Source of the DNA: a virus
IMG/VR virus record: IMGVR_UViG_3300045973_000675
Coordinates: 1-64,000 of that record
Length of the DNA stretch: 64,000 nt
Direction: 5' to 3' (one strand)
Positions 2,792-55,906 of this stretch are shown piece after piece. Below the pieces are notes generated by a model that saw nothing but the letters and a program-made list of their open reading frames with translations, was not told where the DNA came from and did not search any database. Both the position numbers and the translations under genes were made by a program. Numbering within the stretch: the stretch's first letter is position 1; every line of letters starts with the position of its first letter.

Positions 2792-3447
2792 TACGGTGTA
2801 CCCGGTGCTCCGCGTCCGGAGCCTCCGTCTGTGACGGCTACGCCGATGTCCCAAGATGCAGGCGAAGCGGTCACGAGTTTAGGATTTGCGTACTGGTTGG
2901 GGATAACATCCGAGGCGTAGTAGACGATCGGGACTGCGGCGGTCGAGTCAATCAGGTACAGGTCGCCGCCGGCCGTGTCCTTGGTCGGGTGGACGTGTTC
3001 CTTTGCCGTCGCCTCTCCGCTGCTCGTAGCGCCGGGGTCGGCAATTCCGTCTTCAAGGGGGAGCTCGGTGCTGAGGGTGACGCTGTCTTGACTGTCGATG
3101 CGCTGCCACGCCGTCGCGGCTGCACCGGTCTTCCACCAGAGCGCAACGAAGTTTCCAGAGCCGTCAACCTGCTGAGCCACAGCGGGGATCTGACGGTTGA
3201 ACGATGTTCCTGGCGCCTCCGGATCGTCATGAGTCCCCGACGATGGATCGAAGGTGATCCGCACCCACCCTGGGACGTGCGTGACCGTCGCGTTGCCGGC
3301 GATCTTCGCCATCAGCACGGCGAGGGCTGCCGCCTGAGCGGCATTCGGCAGAGCGCCGTTGAGCGATTGCAGGAATGCCAGCCCCTCCGTCACCTGCGCG
3401 TCGTAGGTGTCCTGGCCGAGCGCGCGCCCTGTTGGGGTATCGTTCAC
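2791..3447 (-). CDS. hypothetical virion/baseplate-associated protein
   Basis: Translationally coupled to both neighbours in the tail operon. Confidence 0.55.
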   Translation of the reverse strand: MNDTPTGRALGQDTYDAQVTEGLAFLQSLNGALPNAAQAAALAVLMAKIAGNATVTHVPGWVRITFDPSSGTHDDPEAPGTSFNRQIPAVAQQVDGSGNFVALWWKTGAAATAWQRIDSQDSVTLSTELPLEDGIADPGATSSGEATAKEHVHPTKDTAGGDLYLIDSTAAVPIVYYASDVIPNQYANPKLVTASPASWDIGVAVTDGGSGRGAPGTP

Positions 3448-4151
3448 TGGTACTCCGAAAACGCGACCTTCGACAGGAAGTCCGTGGTTGCTCCCGCTTG
3501 GGTGAAGACGGTGATGTCCTGCATGAGGGCCTGGAACCCAGGCTGCAAGGCTGACAGCGGCCCCTGGGAAGCGGCCACAAGAGACGCCAGGGCGGCTAGG
3601 TCGTTCTGTAGGCGCGCCTTCTCGGCGGTGCGGTAGCTGGTGCCGAGCATGATGGCCTCGTCGGCGCTCTCGCTGCCGAGCTGGATTGGATGATCGGTAG
3701 ACTTCGCACGCAGGCGGATGACCGTCCCGTCCGGCTTGCGACGGATGAACATCTGCTCTTGTCCTCCGCGGCTATCCAGCACGATGTCGAATGCCTTGGT
3801 TTCGATGATCCTGACCAGGTGGGCGTCCTTAGGTGCGATGGTCTGCGCGTAGGTCGGGGCCTCGCTCTTGCCGCCAGGCTTGCCCCAGTGGCCGCCCTGG
3901 TACTTGGGCCTGTCGGGGTCGCCCATAAGAAACTGCACCGTTACGGTGGCCCCCATCTCGGGAACGTCGAAGTCTCCGGTCTGCGCACTGCCGCTGGCCT
4001 TGCCGACAGGTTCAGCCCACGCCGAATCAGGCTCAATCAGTCCGGGGATCATCACGCGCACGCGCCCCAACAGCAGCGGATCTGCGTTGTCGACCACCGT
4101 CCCGTCGTAGAGACCGAGGTATCGGAGCGCTTCTGGATCGTCGAATTCCAT
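3444..4151 (-). CDS. baseplate spike (gp5/VgrG/GpV OB-fold)
   Basis: GTVVDNADPLLLGRVRVMIP...WAEP...VPEMGATVTVQFLMGDPDRPKYQGG, the gpV/Vgr OB-fold signature. Confidence 0.9.
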   Translation of the reverse strand: MEFDDPEALRYLGLYDGTVVDNADPLLLGRVRVMIPGLIEPDSAWAEPVGKASGSAQTGDFDVPEMGATVTVQFLMGDPDRPKYQGGHWGKPGGKSEAPTYAQTIAPKDAHLVRIIETKAFDIVLDSRGGQEQMFIRRKPDGTVIRLRAKSTDHPIQLGSESADEAIMLGTSYRTAEKARLQNDLAALASLVAASQGPLSALQPGFQALMQDITVFTQAGATTDFLSKVAFSEYQ

Positions 4152-5383
4152 TAGTGCCTCGGGTGGAAGGACGTGCCCTCTGATTCGCTGGTGCGACGGT
4201 TGATCTTTTCGATCTCTTCCAGCTTATCGTCGTCGGCCGATTCCTTCTTGTTCAGCGCGCCCTTGGCCTTCACGTCGCGCTTGGGATCTGCCCAGCCGAA
4301 GTGAGCATCGCGGGTGCATTCGAGCGCGATGACGTACGGACCCGTCCCGACGGGCTTGTGGTTGGCCTTCTCGATGTACCACTTACCCGACAGGCGCTGG
4401 CCAATGCCGGCCACCACCACCAGGTCGCGCGCTCCGACGTTCTTGTCCCCCACGATGGTGCACGACATCTTGAGCAGGCCCTTGCGGCTCTTGTGGTACT
4501 TGGCGTCCGATTCGCGCTTGGCTGCGGCCTCGGTGGGGGCCGAGGTTGAGGACGTGGCCTCGGACGCCGCCTTGGTGGCAAGTCCGAGCGATTGGGCGCT
4601 CTTCTGGTCGAATAGTTCGATGGTCGTTCCCAGCGTGGGATCCGTGTGGTCGGCGTTTCCACGTGAAACGGCAATGGCCTTCTTGGACATCGGGTCGATG
4701 CCCTTATGGGCCATGGCCCCAACCTTCCCTTTCACCTCTTCCGAGATAGTCGGGAAGGTCACGAACACGCAGTTTGGATCTTGGGCATTGGTCTTGCCCG
4801 CCCACACGAGGGTCTTGACTGGCTGCTGGTCGAACTTGGCGCGGTGGAAGTGCAGTTGCCCGCGCGAGATCACAAACTCGAATCCTTCCTGATCGGCGAG
4901 GTGGCGGATGAACTGGGCATCCGTGCACCGGGCCTGCGTGATCTGCGGGTAGATGACCTTCGTGTCCTCGACGTAGGCATCGGTCCCGAACCCATATTCG
5001 GCCGCGACCTTTCGCACAACATCGGACCTGGTCATGCTGGACCAGCGGCGCGACTTGCGCTCGCCGTCCATCCACACGGCCTGCCCGTGGGCCTTGATGG
5101 ACAGCAGCTGCCCGCCCGAGATTTCGACGATCACGCAGCGGCGAACCTCGGTCATGTCACCGTGGTAGCCCCACGAGACATCGATCTCATTCTTCAGGCG
5201 GAACAGCGGATCGTCGAAGAACGCCAGGTCCCAGTTGTCCAGCGAGAGCGTGACCTCGTCGACCAGCTTGGCGTTGTCGTCGTAGGAAAACGAGACGATG
5301 CGCTCGCTCAAGTCGAGCGGGATGGAGTTCTTGTCGCCGATCCGCTTGATCGCCACCGTGACGTGAGGGGCGTCTTGGCTCAC
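4151..5383 (-). CDS. baseplate hub (late control D / Mu gp44-like)
   Basis: ITQARCTDAQFIRHLADQEGFEF and GIGQRLSGKWYIEKANH motifs; position before the spike. Confidence 0.85.
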   Translation of the reverse strand: MSQDAPHVTVAIKRIGDKNSIPLDLSERIVSFSYDDNAKLVDEVTLSLDNWDLAFFDDPLFRLKNEIDVSWGYHGDMTEVRRCVIVEISGGQLLSIKAHGQAVWMDGERKSRRWSSMTRSDVVRKVAAEYGFGTDAYVEDTKVIYPQITQARCTDAQFIRHLADQEGFEFVISRGQLHFHRAKFDQQPVKTLVWAGKTNAQDPNCVFVTFPTISEEVKGKVGAMAHKGIDPMSKKAIAVSRGNADHTDPTLGTTIELFDQKSAQSLGLATKAASEATSSTSAPTEAAAKRESDAKYHKSRKGLLKMSCTIVGDKNVGARDLVVVAGIGQRLSGKWYIEKANHKPVGTGPYVIALECTRDAHFGWADPKRDVKAKGALNKKESADDDKLEEIEKINRRTSESEGTSFHPRH

Positions 5384-5715
5384 CGCTGCCCCCGCGTTGC
5401 ACTGAGGATCTTCTCCAGCACGGTGCGCTCGCTCGGGAACACGAGTTCGCGCCCGGGCGTGAGGGCAATGGTCGGGTCATGGATGGGCTGTGGCTGGAAC
5501 CACGCGACGATGGGCCACAGGTGCTGGCCGTCCTTGATGTTCGGGAAGGCTCGCGCAGACAGTCCCCAAAGAGTGTCGCCATCCACCACCGTGTGGTACT
5601 TGTTGTCGGGCAAGTCCTGGTAGCGAAATGGATCTGGGTCCGTCAGAAACGTCCTGCCCTGGTCGTCCTTGATGGCCAACGAGAGCGAGTAGCGGGAGAG
5701 GCGCGAGGGCGGCAT
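5380..5715 (-). CDS. LysM/tail X (gp53-like) baseplate protein
   Basis: YHTVVDGDTLWGLSARAF...LWPIVAWFQ...LTPGRELVFP. Confidence 0.85.
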   Translation of the reverse strand: MPPSRLSRYSLSLAIKDDQGRTFLTDPDPFRYQDLPDNKYHTVVDGDTLWGLSARAFPNIKDGQHLWPIVAWFQPQPIHDPTIALTPGRELVFPSERTVLEKILSATRGQR

Positions 5716-6440
5716 CAGCCAATCCCCTGTCGAGAGCTGCGCTGATTACCCGAGACCAGAACGTCGGTCCTGGTCATGTGGGCGTCGCGGATTTCCTTGA
5801 GCGAGATGGCCGCGCTGAAACGCAATACCTCTCCAGTCCTTGCCCATCCGGTGTACTCGATTCCAATTTCCTCGACTGTGGCCGTCAGGCTGATGAAGTT
5901 GGGCCAGTAGAACAGCACTCGCGGGGGTGAACCGGTGGTGGTTGATGCGTAGCCAAGACTGCGCAGAAAATTCATCGCGCTATCTACGTAGTCAACCCCA
6001 GCCGTGATGCCGGGATTCTCAAACTGATCGACGTTCGCGTTCTGCATGTATTCGAGGGCGTCGAATTGCAGCGTGAACTTGAACGGAACGCTCTTGGTAT
6101 GTGAGTAGTGCCGGCGTTCGTGACTGAGCCCTGGCACCACAATGTCAGACCACACGGCACTAATGGTCTCGCTCAACTTGTCCGGGTTGAACTGGGCGTC
6201 CATCCACGTGGTGAACCGACCCTCTTCCTTGTTCTGCAGATCGGCATCGTCATACAGATGCAGCTCCATCTTGGCCGCCGGAATAGAGAGCGACGACATC
6301 TGGCCCGCGGGAGCGGCGGGGCGGATGGGCGGGTTCTGGTCGCGCGCCACGGCCTTGCTGGGCTTGGCGGTCGGCTGTGCAGCCGCGATGCTGGCCGCGA
6401 CGTTCACGCCGAAGAACTTGGTGAGGACGGGAATGGCCAC
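5715..6440 (-). CDS. tail tube initiator (CIS-tube/Afp7-like)
   Basis: QFNPDKLSE...FTLQFD...PPRVLFYW...ISLKE pattern; follows the tape measure. Confidence 0.75.
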   Translation of the reverse strand: MAIPVLTKFFGVNVAASIAAAQPTAKPSKAVARDQNPPIRPAAPAGQMSSLSIPAAKMELHLYDDADLQNKEEGRFTTWMDAQFNPDKLSETISAVWSDIVVPGLSHERRHYSHTKSVPFKFTLQFDALEYMQNANVDQFENPGITAGVDYVDSAMNFLRSLGYASTTTGSPPRVLFYWPNFISLTATVEEIGIEYTGWARTGEVLRFSAAISLKEIRDAHMTRTDVLVSGNQRSSRQGIG

Positions 6441-6443
6441 GGC

Positions 6444-8723
6444 TTAGCCCCCTACCGGGATGGGGTGGAAGGCGCGCGCCCGCTTGCGCAGGTCGGCCTT
6501 GCGCACGGATTCCGCGACCTGCTCGCCGTCCAGGTGCAGGTGGGTGTGGATTTCGGCGACGGCTGGACCCACGGATTGGACGTCGGATACCGAAGACTGG
6601 TTGGCGGCATGCTGTGACGACGTCGGTCCGCGGGCGATGACGCTGGCCATGGCCGCAACGGGGATCGTCGACGCGCCGGCCGCGGACGACATTTGGCCAA
6701 CGTCCATGGACGCGATCGGGCTCTGCTCTGGCGCGGCCACCACCACCGTCCTGCCTGTGAGGTCGTCGCGGAACTTGTTGATCGACGTTTCGACCTGATC
6801 GAGTTCGCGACCCACGCTGTTGGACAGGCCGAGATCTGCACCGAACAACGAACCAACGAAATCCGCCGTCTTGGCCAGGATGCGAAGAAGCGACGAGGCC
6901 ATGCCGATCACGAAACCAATGGCGTCGAGCGCGATGGCCGCGAACCCTTGCAGTGCCCCCTTCATGTCGCCGTCCAAGATCGCCACAACCAAATTCAGGC
7001 CGTCGCGCAAGAAGTAGAGCACCGGCTTGATGACCGGACCGAGCACCTCCCATGCCTCACGAAATATCCCGATCAAGGTAGTGGCCACGCGGAATTCAAA
7101 CGCTACTTTCTCAGCCAGAATGCCAGCAACCCATGCCAGAAGAGTTCCGACGTAGGCTGCGACATCTCCGAACGTATCCCAGGTGGCAGCATTCCCCTCT
7201 GCGGAGTCGTCCGCCAGCCCCAGGGCAATACCGATTCCCTTCCATGCGAGCAGCAGTCTGTCGAAGGTCGGCTGCAACTTTTCCATTGTGTTGTCCCAGC
7301 CATTCATGAACCCTTCCCAGGCGTTCTGGATGACCCCGACCCAGTGCCAGACCTGAACGGCAAACTTCTTGATCCCGGAGTTCTCCGCCTTGTCCATCTC
7401 TTCACGGACCTTGCCGGAGAAGCCGCCTTGGTCGAAAAGCTGCACGAGACCCTGGAAGACGAGACCGACCGTATTGGCCGCAGCGGCGAAGCGGCCCCAA
7501 AAACCGTTGCCCTCGACGATCTCCCGGTTGAGATCTTTGATGGCCAGGTTGAGAAGCATTAGGGCCGGCGCGAATACCTTGGTCAGCGGCCCGCCGATGA
7601 AATCGACCATGTTGGCAAAGTTCGCCCTGAGTCGGTTTTCCTGAGTCCCCATCTCTTCCGCGACGGACTCGGTCATGGCCTGCGCGGCCCCGCCGGCGCC
7701 ATTCATCTGCTTGCCGATCTCCGCGGCTGCCTTTGCACCGTAGACCATCTCGCCCGAAGCGCTCCGCACGCCGCGCGAAAGTTCGCCCATGATGGCAACC
7801 ATGGTGCCGGCGCCGCGAGGCCCGAAGACCTTCCCGATCTTCTCTGCCTTGTCGCCTTCGGATAGCGATCCCATGCGAGCGTCGAGTTCGGCCAGGATGG
7901 TCAGGAGGGGCTTCATCCCTCCCGTGGCGGCGTCTTTGGCGCTTACCCCTAGTCCGGCCAGCTTCGCGCGCGCAGCCCCTCCCGCGAGCCCCGACAGCGC
8001 CATGTTGACGCCCATGATGGCCTGGCCGGCATCGGGCAAGACCTTCTTGGCCAAGCCGACGGCCGCCAAGGCGTCGTTGAAGTTGGCCCCCGCGAGTTCC
8101 GCGCCGCGGGCCACGCCGGTCACCATCGGGACGATATCGGCAGCTGATACCCCGAACATCCGCATGGCCACGGCCATCTTGTCGACCGTGGGGGTGGCGT
8201 CGGCGGCCGTGAGGTGAAATTCCTTCAGGATGCTGGCCACCGCCTGCGCGGCCTGTGGCCCCGCCAGCTCCCCGAAACTCGCCTTGGCCAGAAGGACGCT
8301 GGCATTCAGAGCCTCGATGGCACCCTCTGCCCCCATGCCGTTGGTGATGAGCATCTTGAGGTCTTGGGCAGCCTCGTCGGCCGTGACGCCAATGCCCCGC
8401 AGCCCAACGTCGTCCGCAGCCTTGCGCAGTTCTTCCAGTTGCTCGGCAGTGGCACCAGCGCGGGCCCCGGCCTGGGCCAAGGTCAATGAACCCTCGGCCG
8501 CCTCGTGGGCGAACCCGTAGGCGATGGCGGTACCGGCGGCAACGGCCGCTCCCGCAACGGCGGCAAGGCCAAGCGCCCACTTCCCGAGATGCAGCGCGGA
8601 CCCGGTCGCCAAATCCTCGGCCGCCTTTTCGGTGGCGTGGAACTGATGCTTGGCCTTCTCCATCACGGTGGAGAATTCGTCCTTGGCCTCCAGGAGAATG
8701 CCCAGCCCGAGATTGTTCAGCAT
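6444..8723 (-). CDS. tail tape measure protein (TP901-type core)
   Basis: 759 aa, Ala/Gly-rich helical; KLAGLGVSAKDAATGGMKPLLTILAEL...KVFG motif; follows the chaperone. Confidence 0.9.
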   Translation of the reverse strand: MLNNLGLGILLEAKDEFSTVMEKAKHQFHATEKAAEDLATGSALHLGKWALGLAAVAGAAVAAGTAIAYGFAHEAAEGSLTLAQAGARAGATAEQLEELRKAADDVGLRGIGVTADEAAQDLKMLITNGMGAEGAIEALNASVLLAKASFGELAGPQAAQAVASILKEFHLTAADATPTVDKMAVAMRMFGVSAADIVPMVTGVARGAELAGANFNDALAAVGLAKKVLPDAGQAIMGVNMALSGLAGGAARAKLAGLGVSAKDAATGGMKPLLTILAELDARMGSLSEGDKAEKIGKVFGPRGAGTMVAIMGELSRGVRSASGEMVYGAKAAAEIGKQMNGAGGAAQAMTESVAEEMGTQENRLRANFANMVDFIGGPLTKVFAPALMLLNLAIKDLNREIVEGNGFWGRFAAAANTVGLVFQGLVQLFDQGGFSGKVREEMDKAENSGIKKFAVQVWHWVGVIQNAWEGFMNGWDNTMEKLQPTFDRLLLAWKGIGIALGLADDSAEGNAATWDTFGDVAAYVGTLLAWVAGILAEKVAFEFRVATTLIGIFREAWEVLGPVIKPVLYFLRDGLNLVVAILDGDMKGALQGFAAIALDAIGFVIGMASSLLRILAKTADFVGSLFGADLGLSNSVGRELDQVETSINKFRDDLTGRTVVVAAPEQSPIASMDVGQMSSAAGASTIPVAAMASVIARGPTSSQHAANQSSVSDVQSVGPAVAEIHTHLHLDGEQVAESVRKADLRKRARAFHPIPVGG

Positions 8724-53315: not shown

Positions 53316-53554
53316 ACGGCCCTCCGTAGTGCCACGGGTCGAGCCTTCGCCGATTGTTCTGCCATTACCGCCTCGTCGAGCGCATCAGATGCCCGCGCCT
53401 GTTCTTCCAGCGCGTGAGCCAGCCGCTGCTCGGCCTTGTGCACATCGACGCCGCACCGGTCGAGACGAAACTGCGCGCTCTGACGGTCGTGCTGGAGGCG
53501 CGATAGTTCAGCGGCCGAGACCGGCCCGGTGGGCTTTCCGATGTCAGGGCTCAC
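53312..53554 (-). CDS. small coiled-coil protein
   Basis: Coupled ORF. Confidence 0.5.
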   Translation of the reverse strand: MSPDIGKPTGPVSAAELSRLQHDRQSAQFRLDRCGVDVHKAEQRLAHALEEQARASDALDEAVMAEQSAKARPVALRRAV

Positions 53555-55149
53555 GCTGCACCGTCCGGCATGATGCCCTTGACCCGCTTCTTGCCCCGCG
53601 CCTCGGCCGCCGCTTCCTTGATGGGGACGATGATCGGCTCGGTGACTTCCTTCTCGGGGTCACACCACGGCCGGATGGCGATGAGCGACCACCCGCCCTC
53701 GATGACCTTTTCGTAGAAGCGGGCTCGCGTCTGGTCGTCCATGCTGCCCACTTCGTCCACCTTGATGAGCTTGCCCAATGGATTGGCCCGCTTCGCCAGG
53801 TCGACCGCGAAGTCGATCTTCTCGTGGCCACCGCAACGGTCGAAGCTGACCCCATCGAGGAAGATGTTTCCGTCGACGATGGCCAGGCCTGGAATGGCCT
53901 TGGAACGCTCAACCATCTCGGCGGGTGCATCGGTGGTCAAGCGGTCAACGATGGCCTGCAGGGCCTTGGCCTTGGTGGTGGCGTCGGCCTCGACTTGACC
54001 GAGGCGGATCTCCTCGTAGAGGGCGTCGTGGGCCTCACGTGCCGCGCGGATGAGCTCGACCTTGGACATGGCCGCTGTCACGGCGTCGCCGGCGGCCGCC
54101 ATCTCCGCTTCGGTTGGGGGCACGATGGTGGCGGAGGCCAGGGTGGCTTCGAGGTCGTCGGCCTGCGTATGGCAGGACTCGGCCTGGTCGAGCAACCTCT
54201 TCGCCTCGACATCGGCGATCTCTAGTTTGTCGAGTTCATTCCGTTTCGTTTCCACGCGCAGGCGGGCCCGCTCAAAGTCCTCCTGTGCCTCTTCCAATTC
54301 AGCGTGGACGCATGCGATGGTTTGGGCGTCGCGAACAGCATCTGGTCGGGCCAGAATGTCGTCTCGTTCGGCGCGCAACTCGGCGATCCTGGACCGCGTC
54401 CCCTGGGTCCGCACGGCCATGGCCTCGGCGTCGGCCTTACGCTGGACGAGCGCATCCCTTGCCTTCTCGGCCTCGCGCAGGGGCAGATCCTCCTCGCCCT
54501 CGAGCGGGACCTCGACGCCCTTGTGCTCGGGACGGTCCAACGACTTGGCCTTGGTAACGGCCGCGGCGTGGTCGGTCTTGGCCTTGGCCGCGACCTTGTT
54601 GGCCTCGGTGCGCCTGGTCTCAAAGCCGGCCCGCACGTCGTCGATGACCTCCAGGCCGAACTTGCCCGCGGGCACCTCGCAGACCTCGCCAGTCCAGCGC
54701 TCGAGGTCTTCCGCGGTGACCGGCATTTCGATCACCTCGGACAGCATCTCGATGCGCCGGGACTTGGTCGCCTTCAGGAACTCGACCGGGTCGAACAGCT
54801 TCCCGAACTTCTCCAGCATCTTCTCGCGTGGGCTTTGCCATGGGCGGGTGTCGCCTTCGTTGTTGCGGATTGTGAGCTTGGGAGAGCCTTCGCGCGGAAT
54901 CACCTGGCGGGCCGTGAAGCTGGGATTCGGCGGGTCGTCGAAGTGGGCCATCAGCTCGGCACGGTCAGCGCCCTTGCGGATGGCGTCCTTGCTGATGCCA
55001 AGCCCGGTGAGGGTCATCTCGATGGCGTCGCCGATGGTGGACTTGCCGGTTCCACACGGGCCCTTGATCTCGTTGCCGTCGGGGCCGATCTCAATCACGC
55101 GATATGAGATGCAGCCGAGGTCGCGGATGCTGATTGCGGTGAGTTTCAT
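53551..55149 (-). CDS. SMC/Rad50-like ABC ATPase
   Basis: GPCGTGKST, long coiled coil, CGGHEK signature, IKVDE Walker B. Confidence 0.82.
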   Translation of the reverse strand: MKLTAISIRDLGCISYRVIEIGPDGNEIKGPCGTGKSTIGDAIEMTLTGLGISKDAIRKGADRAELMAHFDDPPNPSFTARQVIPREGSPKLTIRNNEGDTRPWQSPREKMLEKFGKLFDPVEFLKATKSRRIEMLSEVIEMPVTAEDLERWTGEVCEVPAGKFGLEVIDDVRAGFETRRTEANKVAAKAKTDHAAAVTKAKSLDRPEHKGVEVPLEGEEDLPLREAEKARDALVQRKADAEAMAVRTQGTRSRIAELRAERDDILARPDAVRDAQTIACVHAELEEAQEDFERARLRVETKRNELDKLEIADVEAKRLLDQAESCHTQADDLEATLASATIVPPTEAEMAAAGDAVTAAMSKVELIRAAREAHDALYEEIRLGQVEADATTKAKALQAIVDRLTTDAPAEMVERSKAIPGLAIVDGNIFLDGVSFDRCGGHEKIDFAVDLAKRANPLGKLIKVDEVGSMDDQTRARFYEKVIEGGWSLIAIRPWCDPEKEVTEPIIVPIKEAAAEARGKKRVKGIMPDGAA

Positions 55150-55313
55150 CGTGTGTTTCCCTTCTCATTGAGGAATTGCTGGGCGGCCTTCTCGGCTGCA
55201 TTCAATTTATTCGACCACCGTTCGTTCCTATCGAGTGCCTTCAATACGGCTCGCAGGTGGTCGACTGCGGTGGTGGGCGCTGGCGTCTGTTCCTGTTGCT
55301 TCTTCGACTTCAT
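55146..55313 (-). CDS. hypothetical protein
   Basis: ATG 1 nt after the CCA of the tRNA-like element; no SD. Confidence 0.45.
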   Translation of the reverse strand: MKSKKQQEQTPAPTTAVDHLRAVLKALDRNERWSNKLNAAEKAAQQFLNEKGNTR

Positions 55314-55314
55314 T

Positions 55315-55383
55315 TGGTGGAGAGTCCGGTTTCGAGCCCGGCCGTGCGCGATGATCAATCGCGACGTGACACCTTCACTCCCC
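55315..55383 (-). ncRNA. tRNA-Ala/tmRNA-TLD-like small RNA (D-armless)
   Basis: GGGGAGT...ACTCTCC-A-CCA acceptor stem with G3:U70; CGCGA-TTGATCA-TCGCG hairpin; CCGG-GCTCGAAA-CCGG T-like arm. Confidence 0.6.
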
Positions 55384-55441
55384 TTGCGCCCCGTTCGGCC
55401 GGGGCCACGCCTTCCACTCCTTTCCGCTGCTATTGGGTTGC

Positions 55442-55906
55442 CTAGAACGGAACGTCGTCGTCCACTGGCGGACGCGAGGCGTGTTCCTCGCGGTGCTGTG
55501 CGCCCGAATTCTTCTCCTCGCCCCAGCCGCGCTTGCCGCTCGACTGCTGATTGCCGCCCTGCTTGGTATCGCCGTCGCCTCCGCCCAGGAACACCACGCG
55601 ATCAGCGACGATCTCGGTGGTGTAGCGGTCCTTGCCTTCCTTGTCCTGCCACTTGCGGGTTTGCAGCTTGCCCTCGAGGTAGACCATCCGGCCCTTGGCC
55701 AGGAACTTGTGGCAGTTCTCCGCCTGGTCGCCCCACACGTTCACGCGGTGCCACTCCACCCGCTCTTGCTTCTCGCCGGCCTTGTCCTTCCAGACCTCGT
55801 TGGTGGCGATGCTCAGATTGCACACCGGGCGGTTGCTCGTGGTGTACTTCAGCTCGGGGTCGGCCCCGAGGTTGCCGACCAAGATCACTTTGTTGACGCT
55901 GCCCAT
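55442..55906 (-). CDS. ssb: single-stranded DNA-binding protein
   Basis: [31 protein letters not shown]-terminal DDDVPF. Confidence 0.97.

Follow-up and report, generated by a model that had tools for sequence, protein, structure and literature searches.

The DNA analysed here, referred to below as the window, is a 64,000-nt stretch of a phage record of IMG/VR that is 79,144 bp long. On its minus strand, genes coding for an RNase_T-like exonuclease, an AAA_24 ATPase and an SSB protein are followed by a 69-nt element resembling a tRNA, a short open reading frame (ORF55), a gene for an SbcC-like AAA_23 ATPase and one for an MT-A70 methylase (Table 1). ORF55 is probably a real gene. A homologue, P0020, is 81% identical and begins with the same MKSKKQQ, gene callers having chosen the same ATG there; the ORF55 stop codon overlaps the start of the ATPase gene (ATGA), and its GC3, although low at 0.66, is better than in the other two frames. 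The spacer between ssb and ORF55 contains no predicted sigma-70 promoter, and a role of the element as a terminator was rejected as neither a terminator nor a U-tract is found there on the minus strand. The best matches of the phage SSB come from two MAGs labelled 'delta proteobacterium' (L033 and L034; 84% over residues 1-109), and the SSB of a Myxococcales MAG (L036) is 76% identical to it; these sequence similarities hint at the host group.

Read from 55383 to 55315 on the minus strand, the element is GGGGAGU GAAGGUGUCACGU CGCGA-UUGAUCA-UCGCG CACGG CCGGG-CUCGAA-ACCGG ACUCUCC A CCA, exactly as described in an earlier sequence-only reading, which had recognised an acceptor stem with G3:U70, the discriminator A73, an encoded CCA and a central hairpin. 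The two acceptor strands, 51 nt apart, form a perfect 7-bp helix (G-C, G-C, G:U, G-C, A-U, G-C, U-A) containing G1-C72, G2-C71 and G3:U70. In the MFE fold the central hairpin, with one bulge, grows to 9 bp and no D-stem is formed, in agreement with the earlier proposal that a single strand replaces the D-arm as it does in the tRNA-like domain (TLD) of tmRNA. The T-arm had been called imperfect and is so: the last pair of its stem is a G/A mismatch, and it can be drawn either with 4 bp (CCGG/CCGG) and an 8-nt loop, or in the canonical register CCGGG/CUCGAAA/CCGGA with three of five pairs formed. It retains the equivalents of U55, C56 and A58, with a C at position 54. According to RNAfold, the MFE structure of the 69-mer is the fold proposed by the sequence-only reading (-27.6 kcal/mol, 46% of the ensemble), and this fold persists when the whole ssb-ORF55 spacer (about 127-128 nt) is folded. 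Two other candidate roles were rejected, namely sequestration of an SD sequence and an attP fragment, the latter because both acceptor strands are present.

Table 1. Features of the ssb-ATPase region, of its syntenic relatives and of two TLD-only elements. Coordinates refer to the window unless another sequence is named.
Feature	Location	Strand	Remarks
SbcC-like AAA_23 ATPase gene	53551..55149	-	Anchor for syntenic relatives
ORF55 (55 aa)	55146..55313	-	ATG at 55313-55311, 1 nt after CCA; no SD
Whole 69-nt tRNA/TLD-like element	55315..55383	-	Models R1 and R2 align full length at exactly these coordinates
Acceptor 3' strand ACUCUCC, discriminator, CCA	55315..55325	-	U70 at 55321; A73 at 55318; encoded CCA at 55317..55315
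Imperfect T-arm CCGGG-CUCGAA-ACCGG	55326..55341	-
Linker CACGG	55342..55346	-
Central hairpin CGCGA-UUGAUCA-UCGCG	55347..55363	-	Position of the anticodon arm or of tmRNA helix P2
Single strand GAAGGUGUCACGU replacing the D-arm	55364..55376	-	No D-stem
Acceptor 5' strand GGGGAGU	55377..55383	-	G1, G2, G3; pairs 7/7 with 55325..55319
Alternative 5' strand GGGGCGC	55386..55392	-	Five of seven pairs formed with ACUCUCC, giving a 78-nt cloverleaf
Upstream hairpin GCCCCG-GCCGAA-CGGGGC	55388..55405	-	Ends 4 nt before G1
ssb (PF00436)	55442..55906	-	Stop codon 58 nt upstream of the element
L002 tRNA-like gene	L002: 2301-2379	+	Called by ARAGORN
L004 tRNA-like gene	L004: 1838-1915	+	Called by ARAGORN
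DS6A TLD-only copy (L117)	JN698994: 28478-28556		Flanked by gp33 and the DNA polymerase III gene
L029 mini (85 nt)	L029: 59-143	+	SSB-anchored phage locus

The sequence-only reading had proposed ARAGORN, tRNAscan-SE and Infernal with tRNA and tmRNA models as checks; ARAGORN and Rfam do not call the element. With default settings, ARAGORN reported neither a tRNA nor a tmRNA for the window, and none for the full 79-kb record; its -mt mode, which covers D-replacement-loop tRNAs, found nothing at default thresholds, and its -m mode reported no tmRNA at the element even at -ps70. Rfam gave no match to the element at the gathering threshold, nor at E<=10. Such silence would suit a GC-rich intergenic spacer of the ordinary kind that folds this way by chance, as would the folding statistics (z = -1.53 for the 69-mer, 11 of 200 shuffles folding equally well; z = 0.26 for the spacer) and the frequency by chance of 7-bp stems followed by NCCA, of which the 79-kb genome contains 63. 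We nevertheless consider a chance fold quite unlikely. The element is the only one of these stems in the genome that has GGG.../...UCC together with A73, the full alanine set; it is intergenic, on the operon strand and at the very site where two relatives carry syntenic tRNA-like genes; and two covariance models of phage TLD-only RNAs (R1 and R2, see below) find it as their sole match in the window, over its full length and in the register of the sequence-only reading.

Homologues of the ATPase 71-86% identical to it lie on small metagenome contigs (P0002-P0007). A metagenome scan yielded two loci, L002 and L004, whose ATPases are respectively 77% and 27% identical to that of the window and whose SSBs are 76% and 88% identical; both keep the AAA_24 - SSB - ... 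- ATPase order. In each, ARAGORN calls a 'tRNA-???' gene between ssb and the ATPase gene, on the same strand. The L004 element scores 48 bits on the Rfam tRNA model, while the best Rfam clan match of the L002 element is the tmRNA model, of which just the two TLD ends are matched (19.7 bits). Acceptor, D- and T-arms look normal in both. Their "anticodon" loops of 8 nt, GACACGGA in L002 and GGGACGCC in L004, imply that neither element can decode; the L004 loop can moreover close to a 7-bp stem with a tetraloop. ACG occupies loop positions 4-6 in both (GA-CACG-GA in L002, GG-GACG-CC in L004).

The L002 acceptor, GGGAGCG/CGCUUCC, carries G3:U70, A73 and CCA, whereas that of L004 has G3-C70, G73 and no CCA; consequently, alanine identity is not conserved at the locus. 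Between L002 and the window, acceptor pairs 4-7 all differ on both strands with pairing kept (A-U/G-C, G-C/A-U, C-G/G-C and G-C/U-A, respectively). The comparison with L002 may thus show covariation downstream of ssb, which the sequence-only reading had suggested looking for; L004 lacks the alanine set, and MAFFT could not align the elements of the window, L002 and L004 consistently. The window, L002 and L004 each have a hairpin whose end lies 3-4 nt ahead of G1, a layout that fits the register in which G1 is 55383. The loop motif GCCGAAC is common to the window hairpin at 55388-55405(-) and to a hairpin at L002:2242-2260(+) that lies further upstream of its element; the stems differ. The ORFs adjoining the tRNA-like gene are unrelated from phage to phage: L002:1550-2212(+) codes for a hexapeptide-repeat protein, L004:1938-2504(+) for a 188-aa protein without a Pfam match, and the window equivalent is ORF55. 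In these comparisons the ssb-ATPase site behaves as a gene-insertion hot spot, and the locus in this phage lineage is predicted to carry a fast-evolving, non-decoding tRNA-like gene.

Further relatives were sought in several ways. Viral contigs gave no match either to an exact search for GGGGAGU-N-ACUCUCCACCA or to a scan with the single ATPase sequence. Scans with an ATPase alignment otherwise retrieved just distant loci without tRNA-like genes, and nothing in genome contigs. SSB-anchored scans recovered phage loci with 43-65% identity and host SSBs, with no syntenic element except for L029 and L085, described below. Among 401 genomes from the phylum to which the best SSB match belongs, one (G200) has a prophage-like ATPase homologue, which follows a different upstream module and has no element. 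This locus (L116, G200:C31:9000-22000) comprises a tRNA-Ala(CGC) gene at 711-785, a ParB-like gene at 2935-4407(-), the ATPase homologue at 4404-5933(-) (E 2.5e-67) and a DUF3799 gene at 5963-6793(-); the host tRNA-Ala gene, a few kb from the ATPase homologue, could be an integration site. In four sequencing runs, related contigs cover conserved pieces of ssb and of the ATPase gene, with nothing over 55152-55440. BLAST of the L002, L004, L029 and L139 elements against isolate phages returned generic tRNA fragments or nothing. Lastly, a viral-contig scan with 3' halves of the window and L002 types found no close relative of the element; its matches are ordinary tRNAs, elements without a 5' partner within 124 nt upstream and three variant minis.

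With the relatives in hand, the element could be seen as a decaying relic, that is, a former tRNA-like gene of the L002/L004 kind that no longer has a D-stem, a complete T-stem or any function. It is far more diverged than the flanking proteins, the SSBs being 76-88% identical; ARAGORN and Rfam miss it, and with the family model it scores no higher than a generic tRNA. There is also the second candidate 5' strand, GGGGCGC. The 78-nt cloverleaf that it forms is reported by ARAGORN at 80% thresholds only, as 'tRNA-Ile(gat)', with two acceptor mismatches and a poor, mismatched D-stem, and it is GGGGCGC, not GGGGAGU, that MAFFT aligns with the 5' strands of L002 and L004. The perfect acceptor would then be a by-product of a G-rich imperfect tandem repeat (GGGGCGCAA / GGGGAGUGAA). 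Yet the erosion is confined to the D- and T-arms, all seven acceptor pairs, A73 and CCA being intact, and, from the genome's own frequencies, any given NCCA would have a perfect 7-bp partner 40-80 nt upstream with a probability of about 0.02. GGGGCGC overlaps the 3' strand of the upstream hairpin and is sequestered there in the MFE fold of the whole spacer. Finally, the succession of hairpin, 3-4 nt and G1 agrees with L002 and L004 just in the register of GGGGAGU. On balance we regard a functionless relic as somewhat unlikely, though a serious rival to the reading preferred below.

The central hairpin raises the matter of decoding, as its 7-nt loop UUGAUCA has U33 and GAU, which is also what gives the alternative fold its name with ARAGORN at -ps80. 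The element would in that case be a D-armless tRNA-Ile(GAU) charged with alanine, or bait for anticodon nucleases. We hold either to be highly improbable. The loop has a C at position 37 where a purine would be expected, U32-A38 can shrink it to 5 nt, and the 69-nt fold has neither the D-arm of a cloverleaf nor a 5-bp T-stem with a 7-nt T-loop; the -mt mode of ARAGORN is silent at default thresholds. The corresponding loops of L002 and L004 are 8 nt long, unrelated and non-decoding, and the loop of the window element also counts as non-decoding. A decoy for anticodon nucleases, one of the ideas put forward in the sequence-only reading, fares badly with loops that are wholly different among the three phages, and so does the idea of a mismatched allo-tRNA: the acceptor is 7 bp long, just a 5-nt linker precedes the T-arm, and neither a long variable arm nor an 8/4 or 9/3 geometry is present.

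A closer precedent is provided by mycobacteriophage DS6A, which carries a 'TLD only' ssrA (PMC4131195; PMC11915505). A DS6A-like molecule is described as a strong inhibitor of tmRNA whether chargeable or not, perhaps because it titrates SmpB (PMC4131195 citing Mao et al. 2009; PMC11915505). In the literature searched, DS6A is the only phage named with a TLD-only RNA. A script seeking an acceptor stem with an adjacent T-arm identified a similar "mini" in L029, with G3:U70, A73, CCA, a GGUAUCGAC D-loop, one helix, GGAC and a canonical T-arm. It scores 54.3 bits with the Rfam tmRNA model, above the gathering score, 303 internal model positions being replaced by 12 nt. We then ran two strict pattern scans of viral contigs in which the bases at acceptor pairs 5-7 and in the T-stem were left free and the T-arm spacing was fixed. 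They revealed at least 153 distinct mini sequences of 66-95 nt (viral contigs, L119-L324), for example L139:1249-1330(-) and L243:2032-2101(+).

In all 153 minis listed, acceptor pairs 5-7 and the T-stem, of 5 bp with a 7-nt loop, are perfect, and double compensatory changes are numerous among those listed in each of the three helices (acceptor, P2 and T). Among them, a D-loop GG goes with a T-loop UUC or UCC and a D-loop AG with UGC, GGC or CGC; UAA or UAG stands right after the 5' strand of P2 in 88 of the 153. CCA is encoded in about 40% (68/163) of the raw matches listed from the first scan. T-loop sequences vary among the minis listed (UGCGAUU, GGCAGUA, CGCGAUA). Only 3 of the 206 mini loci listed have an SSB homologue nearby, so there is no general link between minis and ssb. 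Their UCGAC...GGAC motif is also the Rfam tmRNA consensus. With these covarying helices, phage TLD-only minis are a real and large family of at least 153 distinct sequences.

The element shares much with DS6A and this family: a 7-bp acceptor with G3:U70 and A73, a GG-containing single strand without a D-stem, a single hairpin where P2 would be, a GCAC linker ahead of the T-arm, no tag frame, and a position in an early or DNA-metabolism region on the strand of the genes. The strand in the D-arm position (GGUGUC-AC) resembles that of DS6A (GGUGGUCGAC), and AGGUGUC-AC is identical to the L029 mini at 8 of the 10 positions of AGGUAUCGAC, with one gap. The linker and the last G of the hairpin 3' strand make up GCAC, which the models align to the family GGAC; GCAC also stands at that position in several true minis and in DS6A. 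DS6A and the minis measure 66-95 nt, and the short minis (66-73 nt) have the layout and length of the 69-nt element. Unlike the minis, the element has GUCAC...GCAC where the family has UCGAC...GGAC (or GCAC) flanking P2, the 5' G-A of the motif being replaced by Watson-Crick pairs that lengthen the hairpin, and its T-arm is slipped, with 4 bp, an 8-nt loop and C54 instead of a regular 5-bp stem and 7-nt loop. As mini T-loops are variable, the CUCGAAA loop of the window is not disqualifying. The real deviation of the element, as read from the sequences, appears to be its irregular T-stem, a contrast that is partly built in because our search patterns fixed the T-arm spacing.

Membership was assessed with two covariance models, R1 from 33 minis excluding DS6A, L029, L002 and the window, and R2 from 98 more diverse minis with the window left out. 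With R1, DS6A scores 68.9 bits, L029 67.2 bits (a second figure for L029 in models without the window is 63.9 bits), L002 31.7 bits (E 2e-4) and the window element 18.3 bits (E 0.14); with R2 the latter reaches 22.3 bits (E 0.01). Both alignments require a 2-nt insertion and a 1-nt deletion to accommodate the T-arm, R2 aligning the central hairpin to P2. Verified minis score 38-87 bits and minis without UCGAC 42-48, as against 17-30 for ordinary tRNAs and 29 for a host tRNA-Ala, so that the 22 bits of the window fall in the range of ordinary tRNAs; much of that score moreover comes from GGGG/CUCCACCA, features on which the sequence-only reading had selected. In about 0.47 Mb of other loci, R1 matched just two tRNAs called by ARAGORN and one TLD-like element. 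The models support a tRNA/TLD-like shape at this exact place, not membership in the mini family. Minis lacking UCGAC but having a canonical T-arm include L354:569-647(-), L364:233-311(-) and L407:109-185(+), with R2 scores of 42-48 bits. An element at L085:197-285(+), in a bacterial MAG and 2.2 kb upstream of its ssb, reads GGGGUCG..UUCGAC..GCAC..CGGCUCC-A, with G3:U70, an aberrant T-arm and 19 bits on R2; this could be a prophage mini that is eroded as well.

Other known RNAs share parts of this design. With bacterial tmRNA (RF00023) the element has in common the alanine identity set, an encoded ACCA, a D-armless TLD and the absence of an anticodon, but it has no mRNA-like domain, tag frame or pseudoknots. 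Like tRNA-Ala and alanine minihelices, it combines G1-C72, G2-C71, G3:U70, A73 and CCA in a 7-bp helix stacked on a T-like hairpin; it differs from tRNA-Ala in lacking a D-arm, an alanine anticodon and a canonical T-stem and T-loop, and in remaining uncalled by ARAGORN and the Rfam tRNA model. The C4 RNAs of P1 and P7 and the CI RNA of P4 are small structured phage RNAs with tRNA-like termini that are processed by RNase P from longer operon transcripts and act antisense on nearby targets. The window element, if excised from the phage transcript as proposed, would resemble them in its size, structure and termini. An antisense role of the C4 or CI type was rejected, however, as complementarity to the phage genome is close to chance (9- to 12-mers checked; four 11-mers against 2.6 expected, and one 12-mer).

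Excision could be all that matters. The element would then be pure punctuation, a minimal RNase P substrate that splits the ssb message from a near-leaderless ORF55-ATPase mRNA and leaves behind a functionless RNA. It lies on the operon strand, with no sigma-70 promoter or terminator predicted there, at a module boundary where relatives have variable inserted ORFs; what is well kept is the acceptor and CCA only, and the L004 element at the same site does without alanine identity. The near-leaderless message had been proposed in the sequence-only reading from the ATG lying 1 nt after CCA, which is correct, and the proposal is in keeping with the absence of an SD and with the same start being called in P0020; the adjacency is nevertheless not conserved, since in L002 120 nt and an SD precede the ATPase gene and in L004 an SD-led ORF has its ATG 24 nt after the end of the element. 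Furthermore, RNase P needs neither G3:U70 nor A73, yet the window and L002 share both, and processing is compatible with a function for the released RNA. We judge punctuation alone to be unlikely, though it too is a serious rival.

Taken together, the sequences suggest that the element is probably a divergent, partly eroded tRNA/TLD-like RNA element whose related phages have better-formed genes at the same spot, and it is because of these genes that we see in it a probably real but eroded RNA module. Our tentatively preferred reading, a distinct possibility that we would not put as high as probable, is that RNase P and 3' processing release this module from a shared transcript, that AlaRS can charge it and that it may compete for SmpB by analogy with the DS6A-type RNAs. 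The element would be transcribed within an early recombination operon (exonuclease, AAA_24, ssb, element, ORF55, SbcC-like ATPase) with the layout of the tmRNA tRNA-like domain minus the messenger part. RNase P would cleave before G1, an endonuclease and trimming would free the CCA end, and the ORF55 message would be left starting about 1 nt before its AUG. AlaRS charges minihelices with G3:U70. The freed RNA of about 69 nt may accordingly serve as a substrate of AlaRS, which would need just the acceptor helix, and it could then engage SmpB and the trans-translation machinery as a competitor, as the DS6A TLD-only RNA may do. The slipped T-stem and the loss of UCGAC/GGAC mean that this activity may be weak or reduced to a processing role.

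Several observations weigh against this preferred reading of a chargeable module. ARAGORN and Rfam do not call the element and its z-score is just -1.5; 22 bits is far below every verified mini; UCGAC...GGAC is absent and the T-stem irregular; L004 has no alanine identity; and MAFFT pairs GGGGCGC with the 5' strands of the relatives. It could also be that a hot spot received the three elements independently; the differences between their acceptor pairs would then not reflect compensatory evolution. Among the four ideas offered by the sequence-only reading, a decoy for SmpB and AlaRS has the best precedent, given DS6A, at least 153 minis and a model match at the exact coordinates; the tRNA-range score, the missing motif and regular T-arm and the state of L004 tell against it. 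By analogy, an SmpB decoy role is plausible. In its sequence the element appears derived from a cloverleaf-type tRNA-like gene such as those of L002 and L004, not from tmRNA, and we view it as a degenerate variant of phage TLD-only or alanine-type tRNA mimics. The boldest version, to which we give little credence, would make it a working minimal alanine-accepting RNA of a temperate phage, excised from the early operon and competing with host tmRNA for SmpB (and for AlaRS and EF-Tu), the same cut yielding a leaderless downstream message; this would be a convergent, tRNA-derived route to a TLD-only device.

If the element is functional, a phage RNA of about 70 nt consisting of little beyond an alanine-type acceptor helix could block or redirect ribosome rescue, and both ordinary tRNA-like genes and tmRNA could give rise to such RNAs. 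Since ARAGORN and Rfam both miss it, similar eroded or minimal tRNA mimics would be invisible to routine annotation. The TLD-only family may be of greater consequence than the element: with one published phage example, DS6A, it now extends to at least 153 viral contigs and shows clear covariation, which makes phage interference with trans-translation directly testable.
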